Positions 18-26,723 are shown, numbered from the stretch's first letter. The stretch is DNA of 64,000 nt from Planctomycetota bacterium (GCA_965223545.1 OZ245006.1:7360001-7424000); one strand, 5' to 3'. Numbers and translations: made by a program. Notes: a model not told the origin generated them from the letters alone.

Positions 18-1250
18 CTAGAACACTGTCTCGAGCCACAGGGCGATCGGCAGCTCGAGCAGCCACCAGTGCTGCGACGAGCCGAAGTGGTCGACGTGTG
101 CGAACTGCTCGATCGACTGGAAGGTCACGTCCGCCGAGCTCAGCTGGGCGGGCAGCTCGTCCATGACGGAGCCGAAGCCGAGTCCGGCTTTGATGACGAG
201 GACCTTGCCGGTGAAGGCCGCCAGGTTGTCGCCGTACTGCGGGACCACGCCGGCGAGGCCGCCGTACAGGTCGCGCAGGATGCCGATGGAGATCGAGTCG
301 TTGAAGACGGCGACGTTGGCGAGCAAGCGCTCCTCGTCCGAGTAGACGAGCTCACCGGCCGGAACGTCGCCGACGGCGGAGATGAAGCCGGGGCGGGGTG
401 ACGGGGCGAGTGGGTTGGGTACTGACATCACCGCGACGAACGCCTGCATGTTCGTGAGGCCGGGCGGGAAGCCGGGAACCGGCAGCGCGAAGGGATCGTT
501 GGGCGCGATCGTCGCGAGCTGGCCGACCTGTTTGACCAGGGGCAACGACTGGTCCTCGAAGGCGATCCCCGCCGCGAGCATCGCATCGAGCTGCTGGTAG
601 AAGCCCAATGCATGGGTTTGCACCGCGACGTCGGTCGTCGTCACCGCGCCCTCCCACGCGAGCACGCCGGCGTAGTCGTTGGGGGAGGCATCCACCACGG
701 CGAGCCCGGTGGTCGCGCCCATCGACAGGCCGCCGACGACCGGCAGGCAGCCCGGCTGGGCCGCGGCGATCTGTGTCCGAATGTAGGCGACGTCGTCGAG
801 CACGGTCTGCAGCGTCCAGCCGAGGGCCGCTGAGCAGTCGACGCCACCGAAGCACGCACCGGCAGCCACGTTGGCGCTGCGCGGTGAGTAGCCCCACACG
901 TCGTAGCCGATGCGGGCGAAGAACCCGGCGAACGACCAGCTTGGGTCGCCGCTCTCGTGCACGAGGTACTGTTCGAAACGGTTGCCGAGCGGCGGCAGCA
1001 GTAGGAGCACGCCCCGCGTGCCGGCCCCGGCGCGCTGGACGCGGTGCATGGTGAAGCGGTTGAGGGGATTGGCGCCCTCTTGAACCACGGTGTCCGTCAG
1101 TTGGAGGCTGCCGAACGCCAGCGGCTGTAGCTGCGTGTTCTGGCTGACGACTGCGTACTGGGCCGTGCCCGCGTCGGCGAGCGTGAAGCACGACAGGAGG
1201 CCGGAGAGCAGCCAGGGGAAGGCGCGAGTGCGCGAGTGCGAACGGAACAT
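18..1250 (-). CDS. Secreted alpha/beta-hydrolase fold protein
   Basis: C-terminal part of ORF 18..1946, starting at ATG 1250 (MFRSHS) with a signal-peptide-like N-terminus. Has a GLSMG nucleophile elbow, an 'RIGYDVWG' segment and a C-terminal AHVDH His motif. Confidence 0.75.
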   Translation of the reverse strand: MFRSHSRTRAFPWLLSGLLSCFTLADAGTAQYAVVSQNTQLQPLAFGSLQLTDTVVQEGANPLNRFTMHRVQRAGAGTRGVLLLLPPLGNRFEQYLVHESGDPSWSFAGFFARIGYDVWGYSPRSANVAAGACFGGVDCSAALGWTLQTVLDDVAYIRTQIAAAQPGCLPVVGGLSMGATTGLAVVDASPNDYAGVLAWEGAVTTTDVAVQTHALGFYQQLDAMLAAGIAFEDQSLPLVKQVGQLATIAPNDPFALPVPGFPPGLTNMQAFVAVMSVPNPLAPSPRPGFISAVGDVPAGELVYSDEERLLANVAVFNDSISIGILRDLYGGLAGVVPQYGDNLAAFTGKVLVIKAGLGFGSVMDELPAQLSSADVTFQSIEQFAHVDHFGSSQHWWLLELPIALWLETVF

Positions 1251-1439: not shown

Positions 1440-2165
1440 ATGCAAACGCAGCAACGGGTCTCTGCATCGTTGCAAGCCAACGCCACGCAGCGGTTGCGCC
1501 ACGACGCGCCCACCTCTGGGCGACGACCGAGCACCGGCGCGGCGCCTCCGCAATTGGCACCAGAGTCGGTGGATCCGGAGGAACGTCGCGCCACCGAGCG
1601 CTACCTGGAGCGGCAGTTCGCCGTGCTGCGCCGGCGGCACAGCGCACAGAACGCGATCCTGCTGCGTGTCGTCGCCGACCACTGTGCGCACGCCGTGGCT
1701 CTGGCCAAGCGCGGGGCGTTGGCCGATGCCCGCACCCAACTGACGACCCTCGATGGGTTGGCGCCGTGCCACGATGTGGAACTCCGGGCCGTGCATGGCA
1801 TCGTGGCACTGCCGGCCTGGGCCCTCGTCGAATGGCGGGAGCAACAGCACGCCCGCGCGCAAGGGTTGCTGCGCCAAGCGATCGAGCTCTGTGGTTGGCT
1901 CGCGGGTGATCGCGGCCACGATTATCTGACGGGCAAACGGATCCACCTCGCCGCCAATACGGGTCGCGTTCTGGTCTCACAGCGACAGTTCGGGGAGGCG
2001 CGCGCATGCGTGCGCGCGCTGCGTGCGGTGTTGGCCGGGGATCGCAGCGCCTGGTGCTTCGCATCGCCGGAGAGCCTGGTCCTTCCGCTGGTAACGGGGC
2101 AGGCGACGGGGCTCGCCCGACAGCTGGACCGAGTCGCGGCGCTTTGTCGGGAGGGCGGGCGATGA
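1440..2165 (+). CDS. Hypothetical alpha-helical (TPR-like) protein, first gene of the lanthipeptide operon
   Basis: From ATG 1440 within ORF 1236..2165; start uncertain. Ala/Leu/Arg-rich helical pattern. Its TGA overlaps the lanL ATG (ATGA 2162-2165). Confidence 0.6.
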   Translation: MQTQQRVSASLQANATQRLRHDAPTSGRRPSTGAAPPQLAPESVDPEERRATERYLERQFAVLRRRHSAQNAILLRVVADHCAHAVALAKRGALADARTQLTTLDGLAPCHDVELRAVHGIVALPAWALVEWREQQHARAQGLLRQAIELCGWLAGDRGHDYLTGKRIHLAANTGRVLVSQRQFGEARACVRALRAVLAGDRSAWCFASPESLVLPLVTGQATGLARQLDRVAALCREGGR

Positions 2166-4912
2166 CCGGCGCCGACCCCGTACGGGCGGCGGCGCGCCGA
2201 CTCGCGGCTGAGGACTTCCTGCGCGGCTGGACGGTGCGTGCGCAACCCGCGTCTTCGGCTCTTCACGCCGGCGCCGCCGGCGCCGACTTCTGGACCAGCT
2301 ACAGCGCGCCGAACGCTCGGGAAGCGAGCAGCGGATTCAAGATCCACGTATCTGCCAGCATCGCGTCGGCAGCCGACGTCCTGTTGCGCGCCGCGCCCGC
2401 GTTCGGACGCATGGGCGTGCCTTTCAAGCACGCCAGCTCACTGGACCGCCTGGCGACGTTGTCCAGCGGCGCGGGTGGCGCCACCCAGGTCGGCAAGTTC
2501 TTGACCGCGTATCCGCCGGACCCGGAGACCGCGCGCCGTCTCGCCGACCGACTCCACGAGCTGACGCAGGGGTTGCCCGGTCCGCGCATCGCGTCGGAGC
2601 AGCAGTTGTGTCCCGGCAGTCTGGTGCACTACCGCTATGGTGCATTCGTCGAGCAGTGGTTGCAGCTACCGACCGGGCGGATCGCGCCGGCGCGGCTCGG
2701 GCCGCGCGGGCTCGAGCCCGACGAGCGCGGCGCTGGCCCCGGCGATGGCGCGCCGCCGAGTCCGTTCGGCGCTCCGACGGATGGCGTCGATGGCGAGACG
2801 CGCACCCTGCTGGCGGAACGCTACGTCCGCATGCGCCCCTTGCACGAGAGTCCCAAGGGCAACACTTGGCTGGGGTTCGATCAAGACTCCGCGCCTGCCG
2901 AGGACCCGGAACGCCGCGCGATGGTCGTGATCAAGGAGGCGTTCGCGTTCGTGATGGAGGCGAGCGATGGCCTCGACGCGGTGCGCCGCTTGGAGCGGGA
3001 GGCGCTGCGCATCCGCGCGCTCCAGGACAGCGGGCTGACGCCTGTGTTCGTCGACTACTGGCGTGAAGTGGACCGGGCGTTCTTGGTCTATCGACTGGTC
3101 GAGGGTCCGACTCTGGCCTCGATCATCAACTCCCTGCGCGATGAGGGACTTTCGCCACCCGCGACTCTGTTGCGCGATTGGGCCCAGCGCCTGGCGGACG
3201 CCGTCGCCGAGGTCCACGGCCGCGGCTTCGTGCTCGGCGACATCAAGCCGTCGAACATCGTGTTTGCCGATGGGGGGTTTCGTTTCATCGACCTGGAGCT
3301 CGCCGGCACACCGACCACGGCGCCGTGCGGCGGGATGGGGACACCCGGCTACTGCTCCCCGGAGCAGGCCGATCCCGACGTGGGCCGCAGCTTCCAGCAA
3401 GACGTCTACAGCATCGGCGCGACCTTGTTGGCGGCGTCGACTCTCACTGATGCATCGTCGCTGCCGGACCTCTCGGCGGTCGCCGCCGCCGAGTCGCGCC
3501 GCCACGGTGCGCCGATCCACGCGTTGATTCGGCAATGCCTGGCGCGTGACCCCGGGAGCCGGCCGGAGTCTGCCGTCGATCTCGCTGCCCGCTGTCGCGC
3601 GCTCGATGGAGTGCCGGCCGCGGTGCGCGATACCGTCGTTGACGCCCAACCGGGTGTCGACTTCGGTCAGCTGGCCGCGGACGTCGGTGACCTCCTTCTC
3701 CACGCCGCGCGGAGCGACGGGAGCTACACGTGGTGGGAGTCCGGTCACGCGACGGTGGGGCTGCGCGCGGTGCGCGATTTGTACGCAGGCTCGTGTGGGA
3801 CCGCCTTGTTCCTGTGGGAGCTCTACGAGCAGGGCGGCGACGAGCGCTACTTGGACGCGGCCCGCCGCTGCGGTGAGTGGCTGTGGCGCACCGATCCCGA
3901 GGTGCCTCGACAAGTGGAGATGCCGGGCCTGTACTTCGGCGAGGCCGGTCCCGGGCTGCTGTACCTGCGCCTTCACGAGGCGACTGACGAGCCCGTGTGG
4001 CTGACCCGCGCTCGGCGCGCGAGCGCACGCGTGGCGGCCATGCCGCACCACTCGCCGGACCTGATGACCGGTGCCGCCGGCAGCGGCCTGTTCCACCTGG
4101 CGCTGTGGAGTACTGCGGGTGATACGGATGCCCTGGACCGCGCGCGGTGGGACGCTGCTTGGCTGCTCGACCGGCGGGTCGGCGGGCGTCCCTCGTGGGC
4201 GATCCCGCCCGAGCACGAGACCTTGAGCGACACCGAGTACTTGGGCTTCGCGCACGGTTCCGCCGGGATCGGCCATTTCCTCGCCGAGTTGTGTGCGGCA
4301 GCGCCGGACCCGGCGTTGCGGCAAGCGTGCGCGGAGACCGCAGATTGGCTGCTCGAGCACGCGCAGCCGTGCCTCCCCGATCAACGCGGGTTGCGGTGGC
4401 CGAACTCGCCTGGCGACAGCGCTGGAATCGGCGTCTACTGGTGTCACGGCGCCGCTGGAGTGGCGCGCTTCCTGGCGCACGCCGGTGTGGTCCTGAACGA
4501 CGCACGGTATCTCGACGCCGCCATTGGTGCCGCACGCAGCATCGCCGCGGCGCGCTGGAGCGGCACCACGCAGTGTCACGGTTTGGCTGGCAACATCGAT
4601 GTGTTGGTCGACGTTTGGCAGTGTGTAGGCGGCCGGTGGCTGGACGTTGCGCGGAATCTCGGCCAGGACCTCTTGCTCTATCGGACCGAGCGCGGCTGGC
4701 CGTCCGAGTCGTCCCTCGTCTACAGCCCGGACCTGGTCGTCGGTCAGGCCGGCGTCGGTGCCGCGTTTGCGCGCTTGGCGGCGCCTCACCGACAACACGT
4801 CGTGACGGCAAGAGTGTCCCGCGGTTGCGGACCGGCTGAAGGTCAGTCGGTTGCGCCACCGCTCACCGCAAGAGAGTTCGCTCTCCAAAGGAGTAGCCAT
4901 GCCAAACTGTGA
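2162..4912 (+). CDS. lanL: Class IV lanthipeptide synthetase (lyase - Ser/Thr kinase - LanC-like zinc cyclase)
   Basis: Lyase motifs GFKIHVSA, GKFLTAYP, VHYRYGAF. Kinase motifs VVIKEA, GDIKPSN, FIDLELA, GTPGYCSPE. Cyclase GxxG repeats DLYAGSCG, GLYFGEAG, DLMTGAAG, GFAHGSAG, WCHGAAG, QCHGLAG, with the Cys/Cys/His zinc ligands intact. Confidence 0.93.
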   Translation: MTGADPVRAAARRLAAEDFLRGWTVRAQPASSALHAGAAGADFWTSYSAPNAREASSGFKIHVSASIASAADVLLRAAPAFGRMGVPFKHASSLDRLATLSSGAGGATQVGKFLTAYPPDPETARRLADRLHELTQGLPGPRIASEQQLCPGSLVHYRYGAFVEQWLQLPTGRIAPARLGPRGLEPDERGAGPGDGAPPSPFGAPTDGVDGETRTLLAERYVRMRPLHESPKGNTWLGFDQDSAPAEDPERRAMVVIKEAFAFVMEASDGLDAVRRLEREALRIRALQDSGLTPVFVDYWREVDRAFLVYRLVEGPTLASIINSLRDEGLSPPATLLRDWAQRLADAVAEVHGRGFVLGDIKPSNIVFADGGFRFIDLELAGTPTTAPCGGMGTPGYCSPEQADPDVGRSFQQDVYSIGATLLAASTLTDASSLPDLSAVAAAESRRHGAPIHALIRQCLARDPGSRPESAVDLAARCRALDGVPAAVRDTVVDAQPGVDFGQLAADVGDLLLHAARSDGSYTWWESGHATVGLRAVRDLYAGSCGTALFLWELYEQGGDERYLDAARRCGEWLWRTDPEVPRQVEMPGLYFGEAGPGLLYLRLHEATDEPVWLTRARRASARVAAMPHHSPDLMTGAAGSGLFHLALWSTAGDTDALDRARWDAAWLLDRRVGGRPSWAIPPEHETLSDTEYLGFAHGSAGIGHFLAELCAAAPDPALRQACAETADWLLEHAQPCLPDQRGLRWPNSPGDSAGIGVYWCHGAAGVARFLAHAGVVLNDARYLDAAIGAARSIAAARWSGTTQCHGLAGNIDVLVDVWQCVGGRWLDVARNLGQDLLLYRTERGWPSESSLVYSPDLVVGQAGVGAAFARLAAPHRQHVVTARVSRGCGPAEGQSVAPPLTAREFALQRSSHAKL
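4888..4893 (+). promoter_or_regulatory. Shine-Dalgarno site for the precursor gene
   Basis: AAGGAG lies 5 nt upstream of ATG 4899, inside the 3' end of lanL. Confidence 0.75.
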
Positions 4913-5297
4913 TCCGGAAAAGCGTCCGGAAGATGATCTAGACCTCGTCGCGCGCGTCATGGAGACCGTGCACCGCCAAGTCGGTAGCTACATGACGTCG
5001 CTGCAACAGCTGCGCACCGTGCGTCGCGAGATCGAAGTCAATCCCAACCTTCGCAAACGCGTGACCTCGGGATCGAGGGAGATGGTCAAGGTGCTGGTGG
5101 AGCGTGGTGTGCCGGAGCCGTTGGCCGCCGGCATGTCCGCCGAAGACTGGCGCGACCTCGATCTCGCCGGCAGCCTGGGTCTGTGGACCTGGGACTGCTG
5201 CTGCACCGGGTGTTGTCTGACGTGCATCTGCACGCAGAACACCTCGGCCGTCGCCAATCCCGGCGAAAGCGTGATCAATCCTCAGATCGGGCGCTAG
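4899..5297 (+). CDS. lanA: Putative lanthipeptide precursor (132 aa; long leader, Cys/Thr-rich core)
   Basis: Strong RBS and a 14-nt overlap with lanL. C-terminal region DLDLAGSLGLWTWDCCCTGCCLTCICTQNTSAVANPGESVINPQIGR has 7 clustered Cys and several Thr/Ser. Confidence 0.85.
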   Translation: MPNCDPEKRPEDDLDLVARVMETVHRQVGSYMTSLQQLRTVRREIEVNPNLRKRVTSGSREMVKVLVERGVPEPLAAGMSAEDWRDLDLAGSLGLWTWDCCCTGCCLTCICTQNTSAVANPGESVINPQIGR

Positions 5298-5307
5298 CGC
5301 CCGGCGG

Positions 5308-5346
5308 CGGTGGTGCGTGCCAGCCAGCTTGTGGCGCGCACCGCCG
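5308..5346 (+). terminator. Stem-loop downstream of the precursor (terminator or mRNA stabiliser)
   Basis: CGGTGGTGCGTGCCA (5308-5322) pairs with TGGCGCGCACCGCCG (5332-5346): 15 bp with 2 G-U pairs and a 9-nt loop. Only a weak U-tail follows. Confidence 0.55.
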
Positions 5347-5456
5347 GCCCTGTTGCGTGATCTCGGGCTCACCCCTCGAGAAGCGGCGCTCTTCTGCCAC
5401 AATGGAGGTGTCGGGCCGCGGGCACGACGAGTCGCCCGGCGCCGCGAGGACGATGC

Positions 5457-8015
5457 ATGACGGAATCAGGGACGTGGCGCAAGAGCGTCATCGGCTTGGC
5501 GGCGACGCTTTTTGTCACCGTGGGTTGGGTTCTCGTGCGCCCGGAGGGCCCGGCTCCGGCCCGTGCACCAGCATCACCGGAAACGAACGATTCCGCGCCG
5601 GCTCGACCAGAGCGCCGTTCTGGTCCAGGCGCGAAGCGCTCGTGGCGGGGGCGTGCGCTGGAGGCTCGCCGCTGGCTGCGGGTCGTCGATGCGACCTCGG
5701 GTCGGCCGGTGCCTGGTGCCACCGTGCGCTTCGGAGTGCTGGGCGCGCTCGACGAGCTCGATCCAGACCGGTGGCGGGCGGCGCAAGAGCTGCGTCGGCG
5801 TGACGTCGAGGAGTTCTTGCGCGTTCACGGCGCATCCTCGACGGCCGACCCCGACGGGTGGCTCGTGTCTACTCGGGAGCCGGGGTGGCCGCGCACGGCC
5901 CGCCTGGGATCGCGCTACGGGGAAGCGGATCCCGACGGCTCCGGCGACATCGCGATCGCGCCGGACCGGTCGTTGCGCGTGCGCGTGCTCGATGTCGAGG
6001 GAGCTCCGGTCTCGGGGATCGACGTCGCGCTCGGTATCGATCGGTCTTCGGATGTTCCTCCCGGAGGGTTGAACGCGTCGGTGGCGGTGACAAACGAGGC
6101 GGGCGAGGCAAGCCTGCCCCACGTCGGGCTGCTCGCCGCGCGGGCGCGCGGACACGGCGTTGGCACTCTGTTGCTGGCGCCGGGGATCGCTGGCTCGGCC
6201 AGCGTGGGGCTCGGGCTGGTCATTCGCCCGCCGGCTTGGCCATCGGAGCCGGTCGTCCTGCGGCTGCCCGCCTGCCGCACGGTGATCGTGACGCTCCGCG
6301 GCCCGGATGGCACACGCTTCCCGATGTCCGGCCGCGGGGACGAGTTCGTCTCCCTGCGCGTCGAAACGACACCGCAGGGGTACGACACGGCCGACCTGGT
6401 CGGCGGAGTCGCGCGGTTTGCTCGAGTGCCCCTCGGCGTCGGGCTCACCCTGTCCGCACACGTCGCGGGGTTCGAGGCCGAGCGCCGGTTGCCGCCGTCG
6501 ACGGGCCGGGCCATGGCGGAGTACGTCGAGCTGCAGTTGCGATCTTCCGCCCCGGTCTACGCGGTCCGCGCGGTGGGGGCCGACCGTCAGCCCTTGGCGG
6601 ATCGGTTGCTCTCCGTCGCGGTGCCGGGGTTCGTGGCGAGTCTCCGGCGGAGGACCGACGCCGCGGGGAGGCTGCTTGTTCCCCTGCCGCGTGACGAGGA
6701 CAATGACTTCGAGGACGCAGTGCTGCGACTGACGACGCTGGCGTTGCGGCACGACACCAATGGCCGGGAACTCGCGCCGGAGCTCGGTACCGAGCGGGCG
6801 GCGGTGCGATTGCCCCCGGCAGCGCATGGCTCGGTCACGGAACTCGGCGACGTTGCCCTCCTACCGCTTCCGCTGCTCGCCTCCGGCGTGATCCACGCCG
6901 CGCCATCCGCGCTGGCGGACGACTGGTCGCGCCACGCGATCGCGACGGGGATCGCGGTCGATGAGCTCCGCCTCACCGAGCAGGGCCGTTCATGGCATCG
7001 GCGGGAAGACGTGGTCGTGCGCGTCGCGCCAACCGGCGCGTTCGCGGTGCACGGAAGCCGAGGCCGCGCCGCACTCCGGCTGAGAGACGTTCGCCGGCGA
7101 GTCGCTCCGTTCGCTCCGGTACCGTTTGTTCCCGGCGCCGCCGGACTCGAGTTGCAGCTCCCGACGCCCGGCAGCCTCGAGATCGACGTGGTCCCCGCCG
7201 CGCGCGACGAACTCGCGCTCCAGCTCGAGCCGCTCGATCGTTGTTGGCCGGAGCACGATTCCCGCGACCTGCGTCGAGTGCGCCCATCGTCCCGCGTCCG
7301 GCGTCCCGAGCGGCCACACCGCGACGTGCACGTGCTGCCGTGGCTGTGGCCTGGGTCGTATCGAGTCAGCGCCCATCTGCGCGGGCTCGCCGCGCCCTTG
7401 ACGATTCTGGACCGCGTCGAGATCCGCGCCGGAGAGCGCACCCGCCCGTGGCTTTCGTCGCCGTTGGATCCGGCCGCGGTCGCGCGGCGGGTGGACGTGC
7501 AGCTCGCCGACGCGAGTCGCCGTTCCTCGTCCCGGGCAACCCTCCGGTTGTGGGTGCGGGATCCGACACCCCGCGCGATCTCGTTGGCGGCAGGGAATCG
7601 GCAATGCTGGCTGCCCTTCACCGTCGATGAGGGCGTGCTCGACGTCCGCGGCCGCTGCCTCACGATCTGGCGGCCCGAGGCCCAACCCGTCGCCGTGCCT
7701 TCGCTGTTCGAGGTCGAACTGCGTCTTCCCGCGGACGTGACCAGCGCGCGGCTCGAGGTTGTTCGCGACCATCCGTTGTATTCGTGGCGGGATGTTCCGC
7801 AGCTCCGCACAGCGTTACGGCTCGACGTGGTGCGCGGCACCCAGAGAGTCCGATGCCGCGCACCAGGCCCTTGGGTGTTGACTTTGGCCCGCGGTGGCGG
7901 GCAACCGACATCCGTCGACGTCGTTCTGGCGCCCGCACACGCCGGGCGAGTTCTTGATCTGACGAGTACCGCTCCGACGCTTCGAGTATCATCGGGGCAG
8001 GTAGGAAGATCATGA
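5457..8015 (+). CDS. Membrane-anchored hypothetical protein with carboxypeptidase-regulatory-like beta-sandwich repeats
   Basis: N-terminal TM segment. Repeats LRVVDATSGRPVPGATV, VRVLDVEGAPVSGIDV and VRAVGADRQPL. ATGA overlap with the next gene. Confidence 0.6.
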   Translation: MTESGTWRKSVIGLAATLFVTVGWVLVRPEGPAPARAPASPETNDSAPARPERRSGPGAKRSWRGRALEARRWLRVVDATSGRPVPGATVRFGVLGALDELDPDRWRAAQELRRRDVEEFLRVHGASSTADPDGWLVSTREPGWPRTARLGSRYGEADPDGSGDIAIAPDRSLRVRVLDVEGAPVSGIDVALGIDRSSDVPPGGLNASVAVTNEAGEASLPHVGLLAARARGHGVGTLLLAPGIAGSASVGLGLVIRPPAWPSEPVVLRLPACRTVIVTLRGPDGTRFPMSGRGDEFVSLRVETTPQGYDTADLVGGVARFARVPLGVGLTLSAHVAGFEAERRLPPSTGRAMAEYVELQLRSSAPVYAVRAVGADRQPLADRLLSVAVPGFVASLRRRTDAAGRLLVPLPRDEDNDFEDAVLRLTTLALRHDTNGRELAPELGTERAAVRLPPAAHGSVTELGDVALLPLPLLASGVIHAAPSALADDWSRHAIATGIAVDELRLTEQGRSWHRREDVVVRVAPTGAFAVHGSRGRAALRLRDVRRRVAPFAPVPFVPGAAGLELQLPTPGSLEIDVVPAARDELALQLEPLDRCWPEHDSRDLRRVRPSSRVRRPERPHRDVHVLPWLWPGSYRVSAHLRGLAAPLTILDRVEIRAGERTRPWLSSPLDPAAVARRVDVQLADASRRSSSRATLRLWVRDPTPRAISLAAGNRQCWLPFTVDEGVLDVRGRCLTIWRPEAQPVAVPSLFEVELRLPADVTSARLEVVRDHPLYSWRDVPQLRTALRLDVVRGTQRVRCRAPGPWVLTLARGGGQPTSVDVVLAPAHAGRVLDLTSTAPTLRVSSGQVGRS

Positions 8016-10576
8016 ATCCGAGTCGAAACTGGAGTGCGAGCAGCCTCGGCGGCCTCGCGGTTCTCTTGGTTCTCGTGCATGCCCGCGCGCAAGATCCGTT
8101 CGCGCAGCTCAGCACCCGGCCCTTGCCCTTTGGCCAGCCTGGCATCGGAGCGACGGGAGACATCGACGGCGACGGCGACCTCGATTTGCTCCTCCCTCTG
8201 CCGCGCGGTCAGGACCGGCTGTTGCTCAACGACGGCGACGGTGTCTTCACCGAAGTCACCGCCACGCACATGCCGCCCGACACGCGTGGGACGCGTTCGG
8301 CGACCTTCGTCGACGTCGATGGCGACGGCGACCTCGATCTGGCGCTGGCCGGCGATACCACGGGGTTGTTCGGCGAACAGAACCGGCTGCTGCTCAACGA
8401 CGGTGCGGGCAGCTTCACCGACGTCACCTCAGCCCAGCTGCCCGCCGACAGCGATGCGACGCCACAAATCGTCGCGTTCGACGTCGACGCCGACGGCGAC
8501 CCGGACTTGCTGTGCTGCAGCAGCGAGACCGGCATCAGTACCCCCGGCCAGAACCGGCTGTACCTCAACGACGGCGCCGGGTCGTTCACCGACGCGACCG
8601 CGACCCACTTACCCGCGGAGCCCAGCGACTGCCGTCACGCGAAGGTTGGCGACCTCGACGGTGACGGCGACCTCGATTTCGTCACCGCGACGGGGGAGTA
8701 CAACGAGCCCTTGCGCGTCCACATCAACGACGGCACGGGTCGATTCGTCGTATCTCGTGCGGGCGCACTGCCAGCGCTCACGTCTCTCGGTGCTCGCTCG
8801 TTGTTCCTGGCCGATATCGAGAGCGACGGTGACCTCGACATTCTGACGCGCGCGGGTCGGTTGACGGTGCTGGTCAATGACGGAACGGCGCGGTTTCGGG
8901 ACGAGACCGCGGCTCGGTTGCCCAGCGATGGGTCGCTCTACGTTCAGGGCGACTTCGACCGCGACGGGGACGTCGATTTCACCGCGTTCGCATACCCGTC
9001 GACCGGGGCTTTCTCGTTCCTCGAGAACGACGGTAACGGCTTCTTTCAGTTCACTGGCGCGCTTCCGACCGGCGGCGAAGTCGCGGCCGACTTCGATGGT
9101 GATGCCGATCTGGACCTACTCTGGGCGAGCTCCTTCGACATCCTCCTGAACGACGGGAGTGGCAGCTTCTTCGACCGCCGGCAGGCCGAGCGCCGGGGGC
9201 CGGATTTCGTCGGTTGGCCACGGCGGGCGGCCTTGGCGGACGTGGATGGCGATGGCGACCGTGATGCCTTCTTGACGAGTCAGACCCTCGACAGCGATCG
9301 GCTTCTGCTGAACGACGGCCGCGGCGTGTTCACCGACGCGCCGCAGCCCCTGCCGCAGAATGGTCGTTCGCACACTGTCGCGCTCGGTGATGTCGACGGG
9401 GATGGCGACGTCGATGCGGCGATTGCCGCCAATGGCGTGACCCGGCTCCTGCTGGGCGATGGTGCGGGTGGGTTTACGGAAGTCACCGCCACGCACATGC
9501 CGCCGTTGTCGACGAACACCCAGGATCTGGAGCTGGCCGACTTCGATGGGGACGGTGACCTCGACTTGGTGGAGGCCAACTGGTTCTCCTCCAGCGCGCT
9601 TCTGCTGAACGACGGCAGTGGTCGGTTCAGCCTGGGGGCCAACCTGTCGAGCACCTCCCGCCGCACACGAGCTGTGGCTTCGGTCGACATCGACGGAGAT
9701 GGCGACTTGGATTTGGTCTTCGGCAACGACTGGGATCCTGCGACCTTGTTTCGCAACGACGGTCCCGCGGGCTTCGTCGACGTAACCACAACCCAGCTCC
9801 CTGGGGCCGCGGCGAACGCGTTCGATCTCGTCGCCGCAGATGTGGATGGCGACGGTGATTCCGATCTCGTCTTCGTGGTGTTTGCCTACCAGGCGCAGAG
9901 CTCGACGCTGTTCGTCAACGACGGTGCCGGGACGTTTGTCGATGCTACGGCGGGGCGGTTGCCGGCGACGATGTCGGGTTGGCACGTGCACGCCCTGGAT
10001 TACGACGGCGACGGCGACCTCGACTTGGTGTCCGGCGGCTCCGATGGGCTGTCCGTACTCGAGAACGACGGCCAGGGCCGCTTCACAACAGCGCAGTCGC
10101 TGGCCGTGCTCACCTGGCAGAGTTTCGCGCCCGAGCTCCACCCGGTGGCCGCTGGCGACGTCGACGACGATGGCGATGCCGACCTGCTGCTCGCGATCAC
10201 GGACGGCCCCATCGACGTGGCGACCAACCTGCGCCGTCAGCTGCACTTCGCGCGGTTGGTTCGCCCGGGTCGCGTTGCCCAGCTCGACATCTACGCGGTT
10301 GGCCGGCCAGCGGTTTCGGCGATGGCGCTCCCGTTCCTGTCGGCCGGTGCCGGCCGACTGCCGCTCGCGGGCCTCGGCGTCCTCGGTCTCAACCCGATCC
10401 AGCTCTTGCCCCTGTCCGCGGCCCAGATTCCCGCGGCAAACCACGTGGGCTCGGCGGTGTTCGGTGTGCCAGCGACCTCGAGCTTGATCGGCGCGGAGGT
10501 GTTTGCCCAGGCCGTGCTGGTCGAGGGCAGTCGCATGTGGCTGACCAACACGCAAGGCCAGCGCGTGATCCAGTAG
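8012..10576 (+). CDS. Secreted FG-GAP/VCBS repeat protein
   Basis: Signal peptide (ARA-Q), many GDxDGDGDLD...LLLNDG repeats and the shared C-terminal domain. Confidence 0.9.
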   Translation: MNPSRNWSASSLGGLAVLLVLVHARAQDPFAQLSTRPLPFGQPGIGATGDIDGDGDLDLLLPLPRGQDRLLLNDGDGVFTEVTATHMPPDTRGTRSATFVDVDGDGDLDLALAGDTTGLFGEQNRLLLNDGAGSFTDVTSAQLPADSDATPQIVAFDVDADGDPDLLCCSSETGISTPGQNRLYLNDGAGSFTDATATHLPAEPSDCRHAKVGDLDGDGDLDFVTATGEYNEPLRVHINDGTGRFVVSRAGALPALTSLGARSLFLADIESDGDLDILTRAGRLTVLVNDGTARFRDETAARLPSDGSLYVQGDFDRDGDVDFTAFAYPSTGAFSFLENDGNGFFQFTGALPTGGEVAADFDGDADLDLLWASSFDILLNDGSGSFFDRRQAERRGPDFVGWPRRAALADVDGDGDRDAFLTSQTLDSDRLLLNDGRGVFTDAPQPLPQNGRSHTVALGDVDGDGDVDAAIAANGVTRLLLGDGAGGFTEVTATHMPPLSTNTQDLELADFDGDGDLDLVEANWFSSSALLLNDGSGRFSLGANLSSTSRRTRAVASVDIDGDGDLDLVFGNDWDPATLFRNDGPAGFVDVTTTQLPGAAANAFDLVAADVDGDGDSDLVFVVFAYQAQSSTLFVNDGAGTFVDATAGRLPATMSGWHVHALDYDGDGDLDLVSGGSDGLSVLENDGQGRFTTAQSLAVLTWQSFAPELHPVAAGDVDDDGDADLLLAITDGPIDVATNLRRQLHFARLVRPGRVAQLDIYAVGRPAVSAMALPFLSAGAGRLPLAGLGVLGLNPIQLLPLSAAQIPAANHVGSAVFGVPATSSLIGAEVFAQAVLVEGSRMWLTNTQGQRVIQ

Positions 10577-13164: not shown

Positions 13165-15822
13165 TTACCGGATCGCGACGTCTACCGTGGTGTTGGTGAG
13201 TCGTGGCTGGTAGGGATACGGCAGGATGAGCGCCTGCGCGTGCCCCGACAGGCCTGCGAGGGCCGGCCCGCGGGGCACCTGGAGGTCCAGCCTCGCCACT
13301 CCCGCGGCTTTGGGAATCACGACGGGAGGCAGCTGCACCATCTGCGTGGGAGCGAGGCCGAACACACCGAACGGCGGCACCGAGAACGAGGCGGTGGCCG
13401 CGGCGAAGAAAGGGACGGCAGCGTCGATCAGGCTGGGTGCGCCCCTGCGGGCATAGATGTCGAGCTGAAACGCCTGGCCGGGGCGGAGCAGGTGGGGAGT
13501 GTCGATCTGGCGGAGCAGGTTTGTGTAGAGGCGGTTGGGCGCGTCGAGATTGCCGACCACGATGTCCACGTCGCCATCGCCGTCGAAGTCGCCGAGTGCG
13601 ACGGCGTTCGTGGCATCGCGGTCGTCCGGAATGAGGGCGCCGGTCGGGTCTCGGAAGGTGCCGGTCCCATCGTTCAGCGAGATGAAGGTCTGCGCCCAGG
13701 TCGCCCGGACCAGGTCGAAGTCGCCATCGCCGTCCACATCGCCGAGCGCCACGCTCGTCGTGGCGAAGTTGGTTTGTGGGAGTGCGGTGGGACTCGCCGC
13801 CGAAAACGTGCCCGCGCCGTCGTTGAGGTAGAGGTGATCGCTGGCTGCGGCGCCGAGCGCGATGTCGAGGTCGCCGTCACCGTCGACATCTCCGAGCGCG
13901 CCGGCGTGGGTGACGAAGGCGCTGGCTGGCATCTGGGCTGCAGTCGCATCCGAGAACGTACCAGCACCGTTGTTCAGGTAGAGCCGCACGGGGCCCGGGG
14001 CAACACCGTCGGAGCCCAGAATCATGTCGAGATCGCCGTCCCGGTCCACGTCTCCCAGCACGACGAACGAGGTCTCCTCCTGGTCGACCGGCATGCGCCC
14101 CACGCTCACGTCCGCGAAGAAACCGGTTCCGCTGTTGGCGAGGAGCTGGTCTTGCTGGAAAGAGTTGCCGACGACGAGGTCGAGGTCGCCGTCACGATCG
14201 ACGTCCCCGAGAGCGACGGATCGGGTGTTGCTGCAAGTGTTGGGGAGCGCTGCCCTCCCCGCGGCCGAGAAAGCGCCGGTGCCATCATTCAACAGCAAGC
14301 CGTTTTGGCCGGTTCCGAAGCCGTAGAGGCACGACACTGCGCTGTGCCCGATCACCAGGTCGAGGTCGCCGTCGCCGTCGATGTCTCCGAGGGTCAACGC
14401 GTGCGCGGTCACCGTCGACACCACACTGTCGGTGAACGTTCCGTTGCCGTCGTTGCGGCACAGCCGGTTGCCCGGCTGGCCCCCGGCCGAGTCGTTGCCA
14501 AACAGCAAATCCAGGTCTCCGTCGCCATCGACATCGCCGGCCGCCATCGACAACGTGACGTCGGACAGGCGCTCGATGCTGTGCGCGGTTGCATCGATGA
14601 GCCCGCCGGAGCCATCGTTGATGCACAGCTGGTTTGGCCCCGGGCCGTTGGCGGCGACGAGGTCGAGGTCTCCGTCGGCGTCGACGTCGGCGAAGACCGC
14701 TGCCCGCGAATGCGCGTCGTCGAACGGCAGACCGGCCGTGTCGGCGTAGTTCCCACTGCCGTCGTTGGCGAGCAGGCGGTTCTGGCCGCTGCCACCCCCC
14801 GTGGCCCTGCCGTTCGCCATGAACAAGTCGAGGTCGCGGTCGCCGTCGACGTCGGCGAGGACGACTGCGCCGGTGAACCCAGCGCGGCCGCGGGGCAGGC
14901 GCGCCGCGGTTGCATCGCTGAAAACGCCGAGCCCGGTGTTGAGCAGCAGCATGTTCTCGCCAAAGCTCCCGACGACGACGTCGAAGTCGCCGTCCTGGTC
15001 GGCGTCTCCGACCGTGATGGAGAAGACCCAAGGCCACCACTGCGTCAGGTCGGGCGCACGCCCAGCGGTGCCATCGACGAACGTGCGATTGCCGTTGTTG
15101 AAGTACAGCCGAATCGGTCGCATGCCTCCGCCGAGCACGAGGTCGAGGTCGCCGTCGGCGTCGATGTCGGCAGCCGCCAGCGCCGGCGTGTCGTCCGACT
15201 CCGTCGGCATCCAGGTTGCCGTCGCGTCCGAGAAGCGCCCGGTGCCGTCGTTGAGGTAGAGTCTGTCCTGCCCGCGGAAGTCGTTGCCCAGCGCGATGTC
15301 TAGGTCGCCGTCTGCGTCGAAGTCCGCAGCCGTGAGGGCACGCGTCGGGTCTCGATCTGGCGGAAACTGCAGTAGGGTGGCGTCGGCGAATGCACCCGTG
15401 CCGTCATTGAGGAGCAGTCGATTCTGGCCGAAGTTGGCGAGGACGAGATCCAGGTCACCATCGGCGTCGACGTCGCACAACGCCGCCGCCGTCGTGTCGT
15501 CCGGGTGGCTGGGCAATCGGCCAGCGCTCGCGTCGGAGAACACCCCTGCGCCGTCGTTGAGGTAGAGCCGATTGGGGCTACCGACGTTCGTGACCACCAG
15601 ATCGACGTCGCCGTCGCCATCGATGTCGCCCCGCGCGACGCCGCGCGAGTTGTCGTCGTCCCGCGGCAGTCCACGTCCGGCGAGCTCGGCGAACTGGTGC
15701 TGGGCGGCAGCAGTTGCGGTGACGACGAGGGCGATGGTTGCCGCCCGGACAGCACCCACACCGATCTCTGCGCGGCCGTGGCCGCAACCAGAGATCCCGA
15801 TTGGGTTGGTCGGCGTGATCAA
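13165..15822 (-). CDS. Secreted FG-GAP/VCBS repeat protein (tandem paralog B)
   Basis: GDVDGDGDLD repeats and an AAA-QHQF signal cleavage site. Start may be TTG 15822 or GTG 15759. Confidence 0.9.
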   Translation of the reverse strand: MITPTNPIGISGCGHGRAEIGVGAVRAATIALVVTATAAAQHQFAELAGRGLPRDDDNSRGVARGDIDGDGDVDLVVTNVGSPNRLYLNDGAGVFSDASAGRLPSHPDDTTAAALCDVDADGDLDLVLANFGQNRLLLNDGTGAFADATLLQFPPDRDPTRALTAADFDADGDLDIALGNDFRGQDRLYLNDGTGRFSDATATWMPTESDDTPALAAADIDADGDLDLVLGGGMRPIRLYFNNGNRTFVDGTAGRAPDLTQWWPWVFSITVGDADQDGDFDVVVGSFGENMLLLNTGLGVFSDATAARLPRGRAGFTGAVVLADVDGDRDLDLFMANGRATGGGSGQNRLLANDGSGNYADTAGLPFDDAHSRAAVFADVDADGDLDLVAANGPGPNQLCINDGSGGLIDATAHSIERLSDVTLSMAAGDVDGDGDLDLLFGNDSAGGQPGNRLCRNDGNGTFTDSVVSTVTAHALTLGDIDGDGDLDLVIGHSAVSCLYGFGTGQNGLLLNDGTGAFSAAGRAALPNTCSNTRSVALGDVDRDGDLDLVVGNSFQQDQLLANSGTGFFADVSVGRMPVDQEETSFVVLGDVDRDGDLDMILGSDGVAPGPVRLYLNNGAGTFSDATAAQMPASAFVTHAGALGDVDGDGDLDIALGAAASDHLYLNDGAGTFSAASPTALPQTNFATTSVALGDVDGDGDFDLVRATWAQTFISLNDGTGTFRDPTGALIPDDRDATNAVALGDFDGDGDVDIVVGNLDAPNRLYTNLLRQIDTPHLLRPGQAFQLDIYARRGAPSLIDAAVPFFAAATASFSVPPFGVFGLAPTQMVQLPPVVIPKAAGVARLDLQVPRGPALAGLSGHAQALILPYPYQPRLTNTTVDVAIR

Positions 15823-18446
15823 CGGATCAGGACGTCGGTGGTCGCGTGGGTGAGGCGCGCTGAGTAGGGATACGGAATGATCAGCGCCTGAGCGTGACCG
15901 GACAGGCCGGTGAGCACCGGGACGTTGGGCACGCGCAGCTGCAGTGACGTCAGCCCGGCGGGTTGGGGGATCACCACCGGGGGCAGTTGCACCATCTGCG
16001 TCGGAGCGAGACCGAGCACTCCGAATGGCGGTACGGGCAACGACGCCGGCGCCGTGGCGAAGAAGGGGGCGGCGACGTCGAGCAGGTTTGGCCGGCCCTG
16101 CCGGGCGTAGAGGTCGAGCTGGAACGCGTGGCCGGGGCGCAGGAGGTAGGGAGTGTCGATCTGTCGGAGCAGGTTCGAGTAGATGCGGTTGTGGGTATTG
16201 AAATTGCCTACCGTGATGTCGAGGTCGCCATCCCCATCGAAATCACCGAGCGCAACGCCGGTCGTGCCGTCGTTGTGGTCGCCGAGGAGCGTGTCGGTCG
16301 CGTCTTGATAGACGCCAGTGCCGTCGTTCAGGTAGATGTACGTCTTCGTCCAGGTTGCCCGCACGATGTCGAGATCGCCATCGTCGTCGAGGTCACCGAG
16401 CGCCATGCTCATGGGACTTCCGCGGGCTGGTGGAAGTGCAGCGGGACCCGCCACCGAGAAAGTGCCGGCGCCGTCGTTCAAGTAGATGCGATCGGTGCGT
16501 GCGTTGCAGAGGACGATGTCGAGGTCGCCGTCACTGTCGACGTCTCCGAGTTCGCCGTCGCAGGTGAGCGATGCGATCGCTGGCATCCGGGTTGCTGTTG
16601 CATCCGAGAAGACGCCGGTGCCGTCGTTCAAGTAGAGCCGAATCGCGCGAGCGACATACCCGTTGGCGCCGAGAACCAGGTCGAGGTCGCCGTCTCGGTC
16701 GACGTCGCCGAACGTTGCGAACGATGTCTCCTGGACGTCGACCGGCATGTGCGTCGTGGTGGCATCCGTGAACGTCCCGGTGCCGTCATTGCAGAGGAGT
16801 CGGTCTTGCTCGTAGTAGTTGCCGACTACCAGATCGAGATCCCCGTCACGATCGACGTCGCCGAAAGCAACCGATCTCGTGTTATCGCAGATCGCCGGCA
16901 ACTGCCCACTGCTGGCGGGAACGAACCCGCCGGTCCCGTCGTTGAGCATCAGGCTGTTCTGTCCGTAGCTTGGGCCATACACGCAGTACCAGCCATCCTG
17001 CCCGATCGCCAAGTCGAGATCGCCATCACCGTCGACGTCCCCTGCTGCAAGCGCATGTGCATCCCCGCCGATGGCCGTCCAGTTCGTGAACACGCCGCTG
17101 CCGTCGTTAATGCAGAGACGGGTCCGCGGTAGAAGGCCCTTGTACGTGTCGTTGCCGAAGACGATGTCGAGGTCTCCATCGCCATCCATGTCGGCCGTTG
17201 CCAGCGACAAGGTGGTGTCGAATAGCCGGTCGAGTCGCGGTGCCGTCGCGTCGAAGAACCGGCCGGTGCCGTCGTTGATGTTCAGCTGGTTCAGGCCGAT
17301 GCCGTTGGCGGCCGCGAGGTCGAGGTCGCCGTCGGCATCGACGTCGGCGAAGACGGCGCTTGCCGTAGCTGCATCGTCGAACGGGAGGAGGCTGGTGCCA
17401 TCGGTGTAGCCGCTGGGTCCCTGGTTGATCAAGAGCTGGTCTTGACCACGACCCGAACTCTCAGCCGTCGCGAGGAACAGATCGAGGTCGCGGTCTCCGT
17501 CGATGTCGCCGAGGAGGACCGCGCTGGTAAGCCAAGTTCTGCCTCCCGGCAGCAGCGTTGCGGTCGCGTCAGTGAAGGTGGCCGTGCCGTTGTTCAGCAA
17601 CAGCATCGTCTGGCAGAAGCTGCCGATCACGAGATCGAGATCGGCGTCCTGGTCGACATCGCCGATCGCGAAGGAGGAGACGTAGGGCCACCATTGGCTC
17701 AGGTTCGGCACGCGCCCCGACGTCGTGTCGACAAACGTGCGATTGCCGTTGTTGATGTACAGTCGAACCGGCCGCGTGGCGCCGCCGAGCACCAGGTCCA
17801 GGTCACCGTCCGCGTCGAGATCTGCGGCGGCCACCGCAGGCGTGTCGTCCGATTCGGTCGGCATCCAAGTGGTCGTTGCGTCCGAGTATCGACCGGTGCC
17901 GTCGTTGAGATAGAGCCGGTCCTGCCGGCCTGCGTCGTTGCCGAGGGCGAGATCGAGGTCGCCGTCGCCGTCGAAGTCCGCGAGCGCGATCGCCTTGGTC
18001 TTGTCTCGATCGCCTGGCAGCCGCGCCGCGGTGACGTCCGTGAACGTGCCCGAGCCGTCGTTCACGAGGAGGCGGTTCTGACCATCGCTGGCAAACACCA
18101 CGTCGAGGTCGCCATCGGAGTCGAGGTCGCCCAGTGCCACGGCCAGGGTGGAGTGCGCGGCGACTGGCATGCGGGTAGCAGTGCCATCGGAGAAGACCCC
18201 TGCACCGTCGTTGAGGTAGAGCCGATCTTGGCTGTTGCGGTTGGCGAGGATCAGGTCGACGTCACCGTCGCCGTCGACGTCGCCCTGCGCGATGGCGGTC
18301 GATGCGTCGTCGATCGTCGGCAGCCCCCGCTTGGCCAGCTCCACGAACTGGTGCTGCGCGGCGGCGGACACGGCGATCGAGACGAGGGCGAGCAGGGCGT
18401 GCACAGCGCCCGTGCAATGAATCTCGGGGCTGGTCGGTGATGCCAT
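15819..18446 (-). CDS. Secreted FG-GAP/VCBS repeat protein (tandem paralog A)
   Basis: From ATG 18446. AAA-QHQF cleavage site; colinear with the 13165..15822 paralog. Confidence 0.9.
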   Translation of the reverse strand: MASPTSPEIHCTGAVHALLALVSIAVSAAAQHQFVELAKRGLPTIDDASTAIAQGDVDGDGDVDLILANRNSQDRLYLNDGAGVFSDGTATRMPVAAHSTLAVALGDLDSDGDLDVVFASDGQNRLLVNDGSGTFTDVTAARLPGDRDKTKAIALADFDGDGDLDLALGNDAGRQDRLYLNDGTGRYSDATTTWMPTESDDTPAVAAADLDADGDLDLVLGGATRPVRLYINNGNRTFVDTTSGRVPNLSQWWPYVSSFAIGDVDQDADLDLVIGSFCQTMLLLNNGTATFTDATATLLPGGRTWLTSAVLLGDIDGDRDLDLFLATAESSGRGQDQLLINQGPSGYTDGTSLLPFDDAATASAVFADVDADGDLDLAAANGIGLNQLNINDGTGRFFDATAPRLDRLFDTTLSLATADMDGDGDLDIVFGNDTYKGLLPRTRLCINDGSGVFTNWTAIGGDAHALAAGDVDGDGDLDLAIGQDGWYCVYGPSYGQNSLMLNDGTGGFVPASSGQLPAICDNTRSVAFGDVDRDGDLDLVVGNYYEQDRLLCNDGTGTFTDATTTHMPVDVQETSFATFGDVDRDGDLDLVLGANGYVARAIRLYLNDGTGVFSDATATRMPAIASLTCDGELGDVDSDGDLDIVLCNARTDRIYLNDGAGTFSVAGPAALPPARGSPMSMALGDLDDDGDLDIVRATWTKTYIYLNDGTGVYQDATDTLLGDHNDGTTGVALGDFDGDGDLDITVGNFNTHNRIYSNLLRQIDTPYLLRPGHAFQLDLYARQGRPNLLDVAAPFFATAPASLPVPPFGVLGLAPTQMVQLPPVVIPQPAGLTSLQLRVPNVPVLTGLSGHAQALIIPYPYSARLTHATTDVLIR

Positions 18447-26611: not shown

Positions 26612-26723
26612 GCGTGGCCGGCAGAGGATAGCAGCACGCCGGGTCGCAACGATCCGTGGTTTCCGCGTAACACCGTGGTGGCAAACGCGCCCATAAGGCC
26701 TGAGACCTCATGTGGAGCGCGCC

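Follow-up and report, generated by a model that had tools for sequence, protein, structure and literature searches.

The locus lies on one strand of a 64,000-nucleotide stretch of DNA (hereafter the window) that probably derives from a member of the Planctomycetota, which agrees with the planctomycete host proposed by the first-pass annotation. Three same-strand genes code for a TPR-like protein, a lanthionine synthetase, and a precursor peptide (Table 1). The TPR and enzyme genes share an ATGA overlap (2162-2165), the enzyme and precursor genes overlap by 14 nucleotides (4899-4912), and a hairpin with a 15-bp stem follows the last gene. The three genes, both overlaps, and the hairpin had been noted earlier and were confirmed in the sequence, as were the enzyme motifs FAHG (aa 696), WCHG (aa 760), and QCHG (aa 804). 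Homologues of each of the three genes are found grouped together, and thus the ORFs represent more than chance. When two close loci are compared, synonymous codon changes outnumber non-synonymous ones in the precursor gene (19 versus 6) as well as in the TPR gene (30 versus 22).

Table 1. Features of the three-gene cassette, in window coordinates unless given as amino acids.
Feature	Position	Strand	Description or basis
TPR-like partner ORF	1440-2165	+	241 aa; conserved part from ~aa 44 (~nt 1569)
Class IV-type lanthionine synthetase, divergent	2162-4912	+	916 aa
Enzyme domains	lyase ~aa 41-190; kinase ~aa 215-480; zinc cyclase ~aa 500-880	+	Pfam and alignments
Lyase catalytic stretch	2333-2641	+	F59, K60, H62, K89, K112, Y117, E146, R158
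Cyclase site	4055-4582	+	catalytic Asp633, His698; zinc ligands Cys761, Cys805, His806
AAGGAG, Shine-Dalgarno-like, of the precursor gene	4888-4893	+	sequence; similar purine-rich sites precede several homologues
Precursor gene	4899-5297	+	132 aa
Precursor leader, aa 1-94	4899-5180	+	38-residue helix, then three short helices; predicted fold
Precursor core, aa 95-112	5181-5234	+	Trp-Thr-Trp-Asp, then three Cys-x-x-Thr units
Variable C-terminal tail, aa 113-132, and stop	5235-5297	+	conservation
Stem-loop 3' of the last gene	5308-5346	+	15-bp stem with two G-U pairs, 9-nt loop

The 14-nucleotide overlap is incidental, because the enzyme tail is not conserved and the spacing varies among relatives. 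Folding of the region surrounding the hairpin (5285-5370) gives a z-score of -2.06, with 5 of 200 shuffled sequences folding equally well. The stem is not followed by a U-tract and a terminator scan reports 0 sites, and thus the hairpin does not qualify as an intrinsic terminator of the canonical type. It is also present as a single copy with no recurrence elsewhere in the genome, and so both an intrinsic terminator and a REP element were ruled out. Possibly, the stem-loop marks a transcript end or serves as a stabiliser.

The window enzyme scores above the cut-off for each of the Pfam models RamC_N, Pkinase, and LANC_like, and its single chain carries the lyase, kinase, and LanC-like cyclase domains in the order that defines class IV. 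It also has the Cys-Cys-His zinc ligands with the catalytic Asp and His, and the lyase residues Lys51, His53, Lys80, Lys103, and Arg149 (VenL numbering). Class III LanKC enzymes are defined by the absence of the zinc ligands and catalytic His, whereas the ligands are present here, and the class III model NF038151 gives 305 bits against a cut-off of 575. The nearest solved relative is PDB 8CAR (E 7.6e-49), which we take to be CuvL. VenL positions were mapped by using the motif list of PMC8341899 and an alignment to PDB 8CAR.

The enzyme had been annotated as a class IV LanL. The architecture and the intact ligands bear this out, but the protein does not qualify as a canonical LanL, because it reaches only 527 bits against the 650-bit cut-off of the equivalog model NF038150. 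All six other clade members tested score 490-557 bits, whereas two relatives from outside the clade score 666 and 703. The clade, which includes 39 homologues at 41-56% identity, forms its own branch with a support of 1.0 (FastTree local values), and its sequences retain D633, H698, C761, C805, and H806 in 39-40 of 40 cases. A chimeric enzyme with a LanM-type cyclase was ruled out, since LanL is the best-scoring model for every domain and single-domain groupings recover the clade with supports of 0.999-1.0. Judged from its sequence, the enzyme is of class IV architecture but belongs to a separate clade and is not a canonical LanL. When species genomes were scanned with the enzyme as query, three canonical LanL loci and nothing else were recovered, and none of the three includes a match to the TPR protein or the precursor.

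Members of the clade differ from other LanL proteins at several otherwise conserved positions. The Trp50 position, which is F59 in the window enzyme, is Trp in 0 of 36 clade sequences versus 79 of 80 others. At the Asp137 position (E146), the clade has Glu in 34 and Asp in 5 of 39 sequences, versus Asp in 80 of 80 others, and the P-x-W motif of the linker is found in 1 of 39 versus 78 of 80. In VenL, the W50D variant is inactive and D137N has reduced activity (PMC8341899). The loss of Trp50 could yield a weak or altered lyase. These changes might even be taken to mean that the lyase is dead or redirected, such that the substrate is merely phosphorylated or its Cys residues are linked to other targets. 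This seems very improbable to us given that the equivalents of K51, H53, K80, K103, Y108, and R149 are invariant where aligned (36-39 of 36-39) across so diverged a clade, and that the cyclase site is intact.

The structure model for the TPR protein (pLDDT 91.9) includes eight helices, arranged as the repeated helical hairpins of a TPR solenoid, and has no DNA-binding or membrane part. In a fold search, the highest-ranking matches are to TPR folds (best Z 13.7, rmsd 3.7, 149 aligned). Foldseek returned nothing at E<=0.001, and an atlas search with a homologue gave unnamed and TPR clusters. Pfam TPR models match weakly in 5 of 9 members, with no single family at cut-off for the window protein. 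Assignment as a BTAD regulator was ruled out, as a profile comparison with the BTAD protein of locus L006 gave no match.

The TPR gene is located immediately 5' of the enzyme gene in all nine loci where this site is on the contig (the window, L017, and seven metagenome loci). The adjacency is kept in both gene orders, and a 4-nt overlap is present in six of the nine. In P0050/P0165, which are identical records and so represent one event, the TPR protein is fused to the enzyme without a linker, although this sequence might have arisen by an assembly slip. Distances among TPR proteins show no significant correlation with those among enzymes (rho 0.28, p 0.13), in a comparison that includes short enzyme fragments. 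The gene arrangement suggests that a functional partnership between the TPR protein and the enzyme is probable. A role for the TPR protein as a leader-binding adaptor is a reasonable candidate, to which we assign slightly less than even confidence.

The precursor family spans 110-150 aa, and the window precursor has a mass of 14.6 kDa. Its leader is modeled with a pLDDT of 87-96 across aa 11-90, with the long first helix at aa 10-47 and short helices at aa 49-56, 59-68, and 73-84, and its column conservation is 0.58-0.63. Mean column conservation is 0.79 in the core versus 0.23 in the tail. The core, with 7 Cys and 4 Thr, carries the units C100-T103, C105-T108, and C109-T112. Two Cys-x-x-Thr/Ser units spaced five residues apart are present in 37 of 37 precursors, and at least three units are present in 31. 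The opposite (forward) register, Thr-x-x-Cys, occurs twice in each of the 37 precursors, and the window peptide has three copies; in this register T97 would pair with C100 or C101, T103 with C106, and T108 with C111. With the zinc ligands and the spacing in place, we somewhat favor a register in which rings would form between C100 and T103, C105 and T108, and C109 and T112. Four units of the Cys-x-x-Thr type also occur in a Tat-signal protein, P0038.

The 37 precursors do not share one conserved cleavage site, and a Gly-Gly/Ala/Ser pair is found within 10 residues N-terminal to the core in 21. In full-length members, residues 1-45 include no hydrophobic stretch, and a signal peptide was accordingly ruled out. 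The family does not match the class IV precursor model NF038157, and the window precursor does not match the NHLP/Nif11 leader models TIGR03793, TIGR03798, or PF07862. Among 33 members, the best E-values for these models are 0.005-0.099 in one to three members, with sub-threshold Nif11 hits at E 0.005 in two. A fold search with the precursor model gave nothing at Z>=5. NHLP/Nif11-type folds score Z 3.7-4.4, and the comparison with the proteusin precursor 8TB1 (Z 3.7, rmsd 3.1, 55 aligned) is within background. An atlas search with a precursor homologue gave no usable match.

Some of these characteristics would also suit a thioether-stapled metal-binding or redox module, wherein the leader stays uncut, the rings pre-organise spare Cys residues, and the whole protein is the product. 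The 27-residue core region holds 5-8 Cys (median 7), which outnumber the conserved Thr, the predicted leader is a conserved folded domain, a common cleavage site is lacking, and the Tat-signal protein P0038 carries four such units. However, in the loci read, no metal-handling genes adjoin the cassette, one family member each has a substitution at C101 and at C102, and folded NHLP/Nif11 leaders are described, in the available part of PMC12537861, as recognition elements of ordinary RiPP precursors. We therefore view this reading as unlikely.

The expectation that homologous enzymes co-occur with this precursor family was borne out. Of 11 metagenome loci, 10 have the enzyme and precursor side by side, and the contig of the eleventh stops inside the precursor. 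A twelfth match (L015) was false and was left out. The loci are partly non-independent, since L004 and L009 share sequence and L011 and L014 are 96% alike. Most are shorter than 5 kb, and the co-occurrence is stated for loci other than those of the five most distant precursor-like proteins. The whole cassette is also present on the plasmid pRB98 of Rhodococcus oxybenzonivorans S2-17, a cultured organism, and in a tRNA island. Its genes are scattered among Actinomycetota, Acidobacteriota, and Pseudomonadota records.

The emphasis that the first-pass annotation placed on an unusual host lineage did not hold up. The precursor is found in 0 of 60 relatives and in 0 of 300 genomes of the host class, many of which are incomplete, and other phyla carry the genes; a planctomycete-specific pathway was ruled out on the basis of the two genome counts. 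PF07596, used as a host marker, gave no matches anywhere and so does not bear on the lineage. No compositional island is evident in the window genome (GC3 0.78-0.82 versus a rough genome median of 0.79). The cassette looks like a horizontally moving lanthipeptide variant rather than a planctomycete speciality.

This patchy, mobile distribution raises the prospect that the cassette is an intracellular anti-phage lanthipeptide system, convergent with the class I lanthiphages. As described in the available part of a preprint (10.1101/2024.06.26.600839), lanthiphages carry a TPR-like accessory gene, mostly lack a transporter, and act intracellularly. Their core motif given there, TxDxCxxxCxxxC, fits the window core and 20 of 37 precursors, but the match was made post hoc, the sequences are Cys-rich and related to one another, and the other 17 precursors lack the motif. 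The window genome has a SIR2-like gene at a distance of 4.7 kb and pRB98 has a YhcG/PDC-S02 nuclease gene at 1.6 kb, although defence-like neighbors are found in just two of three long loci. PADLOC leaves the window TPR protein and precursor unmatched and gives only generic kinase matches for the enzyme, and 0 of 46 pattern matches on viral contigs were confirmed. The same part of the preprint describes lanthiphages as class I systems with a methyltransferase-type gene, restricted to Actinobacteria, and reports that other classes are not enriched near defence genes (4-5%). An anti-phage role is a tentative proposal that would be compatible with the mechanism outlined below.

We consider it likely that the locus is a three-gene lanthipeptide cassette representing an undescribed class IV sub-type with a TPR-assisted synthetase. 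By analogy with VenL and CuvL, whose corresponding residues are present here, the kinase domain would use an NTP to phosphorylate core Thr and Ser residues, after which elimination of the phosphate by the lyase domain would yield dehydrobutyrine. The zinc cyclase would then add Cys thiols to form small, non-overlapping methyllanthionine rings, leaving three or four Cys free for disulfides or metal. The substrate would be presented on a folded leader of ~94 residues, whereas the helical leaders of known class III and IV peptides are short. In ThurKC and PneKC, available descriptions place leader binding at the interface of the kinase, lyase, and linker. The clade has lost conserved residues in and near the leader-binding region of related enzymes and has gained the probable TPR partner. 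No exporter or dedicated protease was observed traveling with the cassette, with transporter absence read from three long loci, and no signal peptide was found; thus, the product is probably retained intracellularly. It might be trimmed by house-keeping M1 aminopeptidases or might still be leader-bound. In its most specific form, this mechanism holds that the TPR protein is a separate leader-recognition subunit that grips the folded leader in place of the built-in site, and that the stapled product acts inside the cell, against phage or in metal binding, and is perhaps leader-bound. We offer this version only as a speculative one.

An alternative view is that the cassette is an ordinary class IV cluster, in which the enzyme alone modifies the peptide and the TPR protein has a role in immunity, regulation, or stability. 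General machinery would then trim and export the product, which would be an antimicrobial or signal. One polypeptide does hold all class-defining residues, and more than half of the precursors have the Gly-containing pair shortly before the core. Nearly all known class III and IV clusters, as far as the available source text describes them, lack a peptidase and borrow aminopeptidases, and the window genome has five M1 peptidase matches. Furthermore, TPR folds include peptide-sensing regulators such as PlcR, which scores Z 13.0 against the TPR model. However, the TPR gene is coupled to the enzyme and not to the precursor in either gene order, with one fusion, and its product lacks a part that would contact DNA or membrane. 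The clade-wide losses near the enzyme leader site and the three long loci without a visible transporter likewise argue against this view, which we find unlikely. The TPR-assisted synthetase remains our preferred reading.

The earlier proposal that the pathway is probably undescribed is in accord with our literature search, which found no published description of the cassette, although supplements to Walker et al. and the lanthiphage preprint could list members. The new parts are the non-canonical LanL clade, its conserved TPR partner, and a protein-sized precursor with a folded leader. Characterised class IV lanthipeptides are few (a 2022 paper counted four), and class IV enzymes, in the accessible portions of the descriptions, work without a partner protein on short leaders. 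Known RiPP substrate recognition would be widened by a clade in which the enzyme is paired with a TPR protein and a folded leader. A large precursor-mining survey dropped ORFs longer than 120 aa, a filter that removes most of this precursor family and thus creates a blind spot. If the proposal is true, the cassette would offer a compact three-gene tool for making tandem small thioether rings. If the most specific form of the mechanism is true, the system would represent a two-subunit class IV synthetase that recognises its RiPP substrate in a new way, and defensive lanthipeptides acting inside the cell would have originated a second time, independently. These possibilities are testable now because R. 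oxybenzonivorans S2-17 is a cultured carrier of the whole cassette.

Three known systems are closest to the cassette. The lanthiphages (class I, LphA-F), as far as the available preprint text goes, share a TPR-like accessory gene (LphF, alike by description), mobility, and the usual lack of a transporter, and their Thr-x-Asp-x-Cys core motif resembles the window core in the post hoc comparison above. They differ in being class I LanB/LanC systems with methyltransferase-type accessories, found in Actinobacteria and many near defence islands, whereas no LanB/LanC with LphD/LphE is present in the cassette. The NHLP/Nif11-leader RiPPs (proteusins and prochlorosins; DprM/DprE, OspM, MppM) resemble it in having a long, helical leader, predicted to be folded here, and a short core, and their enzymes are proposed to have acquired a further element that grips the leader. 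The available part of PMC12537861 links such leaders to class II LanM and other enzymes, and class III and IV go unmentioned. The cassette leader also has an extra 38-residue N-terminal helix, and there is no C39 transporter. The LanL enzymes (VenL, SgbL, SflL, CuvL; NF038150) share the union of a lyase, a Ser/Thr kinase, and a LanC-like cyclase with zinc ligands in a single polypeptide, the catalytic Lys/His/Arg of the lyase, the Asp/His and Cys-Cys-His of the cyclase, and the lack of a dedicated protease in the cluster. According to the available account, SflA also has non-overlapping methyllanthionine rings like those predicted here. In contrast to LanL, the window enzyme belongs to a long-stemmed separate clade that falls below the model cut-off and is altered at Trp50, Asp137, and P-x-W, and the cassette adds a coupled or fused TPR gene, a predicted folded leader of ~94 residues, a core with excess Cys, and a distribution across several phyla.

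The enzyme gene forms a compact cassette with an upstream gene and a precursor gene, and re-reading of the sequence recovers the three same-strand frames, both overlaps and the FAHG, WCHG and QCHG motifs described by the first-pass annotation. The 15-bp hairpin is also present. It occurs once in the genome, and a terminator scan made no call there.

Features of the lanthipeptide cassette (window positions)
Feature	Position	Strand	Description
Upstream gene (TPR-like)	1440-2165	+	open reading frame
Enzyme gene	2162-4912	+	open reading frame
Precursor gene	4899-5297	+	open reading frame
15-bp stem after precursor gene	5308-5346		two G-U pairs, no U-tract

The enzyme has the architecture that defines class IV, with Pfam matches above cut-off to RamC_N (aa 41-190), Pkinase and LANC_like (aa 539-879) supplying lyase, kinase and cyclase domains, together with the cyclase Cys-Cys-His. 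The closest solved structure is PDB 8CAR (E 7.6e-49), which we take to be CuvL. The best NCBIfam model is LanL at 527 bits (LanKC, 305 bits), and LanL is preferred for every domain scored singly. However, 527 bits is below the 650-bit cut-off; six other clade enzymes score 490-557, whereas two relatives outside the clade reach 666 and 703. Of 8000 candidates scored, 216 matched at E<=1e-60, and among the 120 matches listed at least 39 share 41-56% identity with the window enzyme; the next step is at or below 36%, where NCBI-named LanL proteins start. A 69-sequence tree places the 41 clade members together on one long branch (support 1.0), a grouping that recurs for each domain. The proposed LanL identity holds as to class, in that the system fits the class IV lanthipeptide definition and would work like one, but the enzyme falls outside the canonical LanL equivalog. 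Separately, a Kitasatospora genome carries a tandem pair of LanL/LanKC-like genes (L001:873-7469). The second LanC-like gene of the host genome (G000:C1:2292449-2293498, L020) is stand-alone, flanked by ABC transporter and sugar aminotransferase-like genes, and its product has a hydrophobic N-terminal stretch, possibly a signal peptide.

Judged against the residue lists in a review by Hegemann and Sussmuth (PMC8341899), the clade retains six lyase residues (Lys, His, Lys, Lys, Tyr, Arg), five in the kinase (Lys, Glu, Asp, Asn, Asp) and, in the cyclase, Asp and His plus Cys-Cys-His. At other positions, given VenL numbers via motifs rather than by aligning VenL, the clade departs from its relatives: Trp50 is Trp in 0/36 clade enzymes versus 79/80 others, and Asp137 is Glu in 34/39 versus Asp in 80/80. 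The lyase-kinase linker is also shorter, with its P-x-W motif in 1/39 clade members versus 78/80 others. Because ThurKC and PneKC bind the leader at the junction of kinase N-lobe, lyase and this linker, according to the accessible parts of two reports (PMC10604976, PMC11330476), these changes sit near the expected leader site and, by analogy, may be linked to it.

The upstream protein is predicted to form an eight-helix solenoid (pLDDT 91.9) whose best fold matches are TPR proteins, from Z 13.7 downward, although such values are common for helical repeats. Direct search found one homologue and the cassette loci eight more. A metagenome search confirmed 12 of 553 pattern matches, and removal of one false locus (L015) left 11. 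The first-pass annotation had made its proposal depend in part on enzyme and precursor co-occurring, and they are adjacent in 10 of these 11 loci; the remaining contig stops within the precursor. The TPR gene is present in seven, its place lying beyond the contig end in the other four. Counting the window and Rhodococcus plasmid pRB98, it is directly 5' of the enzyme in 9/9 loci, overlapping it by 4 nt in six (with start codons chosen in this analysis). This holds in both gene orders, with the precursor last (window, L006, L007) or first (L008, L010, L011, L012, L014, L017). One Thermoanaerobaculia MAG protein (P0050) is a linker-less TPR-enzyme fusion; a second record is identical and thus represents the same fusion event. 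Over nine loci, precursor distances track TPR distances (rho 0.60, p 0.001), whereas TPR and enzyme-fragment distances show no correlation (rho 0.28, p 0.13), which indicates joint inheritance at most. In the pRB98 enzyme (L017:9005-11614), the RefSeq start at 9701 removes the lyase domain; the full frame begins further 5', with a TTG that overlaps the stop codon of the TPR gene.

The window precursor matched no Pfam or NCBIfam family, and precursors match Nif11/NHLP models under threshold only. One search returned 14 homologues and another 21 profile matches. Among 33 aligned precursors, conservation is highest in the Cys/Thr core (0.79), followed by the leader helices (0.58-0.63) and tail (0.23). 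The model, confident over aa 11-90, has a 38-residue helix followed by three short ones. Fold matches are at background level; the top ten include SonA (Z 4.4) and a proteusin precursor (Z 3.7), and a resemblance to RiPP-leader structures is treated as a lead only.

Motifs were counted in 37 precursor-like sequences, with P0030, P0032 and P0033 (incomplete or core-less) and P0035 excluded; kinship among the 37 means that shuffle controls overstate the pattern. Two Cys-x-x-Thr/Ser units spaced five residues occur in all 37 and at least three units in 31, while three Thr-x-x-Cys units occur in 16 and two in all 37. One member lacks an entire Cys-x-x-Thr unit and another has four. Insertions C-terminal to T108 keep the third Cys-to-Thr spacing and not the Thr-to-Cys spacing. 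Unit counts and insertions favor, at modest odds, rings that would run from an N-terminal Cys to the Thr three residues downstream. The core has 5-8 Cys and only three or four conserved Thr, thus some Cys would remain unbridged by the enzyme. These leftover residues would fit a function in which spare cysteines bind metal or serve redox chemistry.

Two sequences stand apart. P0038 (175 aa) passes the TIGR01409 cut-off for a Tat signal and contains four Cys-x-x-Thr units and a segment weakly resembling the NHLP clan; with a borderline precursor-profile match (E 9.6e-4), it is possibly an exported relative. At L009:581-1597, the L004 precursor sequence continues to the leader end and then in frame into histidine-kinase-like sequence, so that the contig is chimeric or the gene copy is disrupted.

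No exporter or protease common to the three long loci was found: an S8 peptidase lies 1.9 kb 5' of the cassette in pRB98 only, and the nearest transporter gene in the window (AbgT-family) is 6 kb off. Full-length precursors carry no signal peptide, and the genome has five matches to M1 peptidases, a proposed route for class III/IV leader removal in the accessible text of a review. An intracellular product is therefore favored. Phage defense would also fit, by analogy with the class I lanthiphages, which in the accessible text of their description (bioRxiv 10.1101/2024.06.26.600839) likewise have a TPR-like accessory gene and few transporters, and whose core motif fits 20/37 precursors. However, the enzyme class differs, the lanthiphage methyltransferase is missing, the same text saw no enrichment for other classes, and only two defense-like neighbors occur in three loci.

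Several neighbors are recorded here. A SIR2-like gene (G000:C1:7355487-7356785, L021:10487-11785; PF13289 above cut-off, weak PADLOC ThsA/SIR2 matches) lies 4.7 kb left of the cassette, beyond the window edge. Immediately left of the window, the product of G000:C1:7356976-7359627 joins an ECF sigma factor to several copies of a carboxypeptidase-regulatory-like domain. Two genes ahead of another cassette (L011:3-1021) resemble a caspase-type peptidase and a SLOG-type protein by eye, with no Pfam or PADLOC confirmation. A divergent alpha/beta-hydrolase-like gene with a signal-peptide-like start occupies window 18-1250 (-); another alpha/beta hydrolase, seemingly unrelated, also precedes the pRB98 cassette (L017:6053-7360). 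Several large FG-GAP-repeat proteins (8012-10576, 13165-18644, 62921-63994; Pfam on the first only) resemble each other at their C-terminal ends, as do other secreted proteins at 18786-21941, 26712-27890 and 60231-63284.

The host is likely a planctomycete, as first supposed: both 16S genes match two Planctomycetes probes with 0 and 1 mismatch, and ftsZ was not detected in the 91%-complete genome, where 13/14 control genes were. Searches of 60 relatives and of 300 genomes of the class (overlapping sets) did not detect the precursor. By source-record names, the clade enzyme is in Jiangella gansuensis, Streptomyces stelliscabiei and Thermoanaerobaculia, and the precursor in Bradyrhizobium sp. 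B117; Rhodococcus oxybenzonivorans has the whole cassette. Cassette GC3 is 0.65-0.70 versus 0.88-0.93 for surrounding genes in L006, downstream of a tRNA-Arg gene and BTAD regulator, and 0.64-0.72 versus about 0.8 in pRB98, with IS30 close by. The window cassette is not distinct in GC3.

In openly accessible papers without supplements, we found no description of this pathway, of class IV with a tetratricopeptide/TPR accessory protein, or of class IV in Planctomycetes or with the core motif; titles and abstract openings on long leaders and carrier species do not describe the cassette. Walker et al. 2020 restricted precursors to 30-120 aa, according to its accessible part. The earlier emphasis on host lineage is not borne out, as the precursor was not found in the related genomes searched. 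A class IV product is reported from Chondromyces in the accessible text of PMC9576775, thus class IV beyond Actinomycetota is not new per se. What is new, rather than the host, is a TPR partner coupled to the enzyme, a leader that is protein-sized and predicted to fold, and a tandem core with excess Cys. Three canonical LanL loci gave no match to the TPR or precursor gene.
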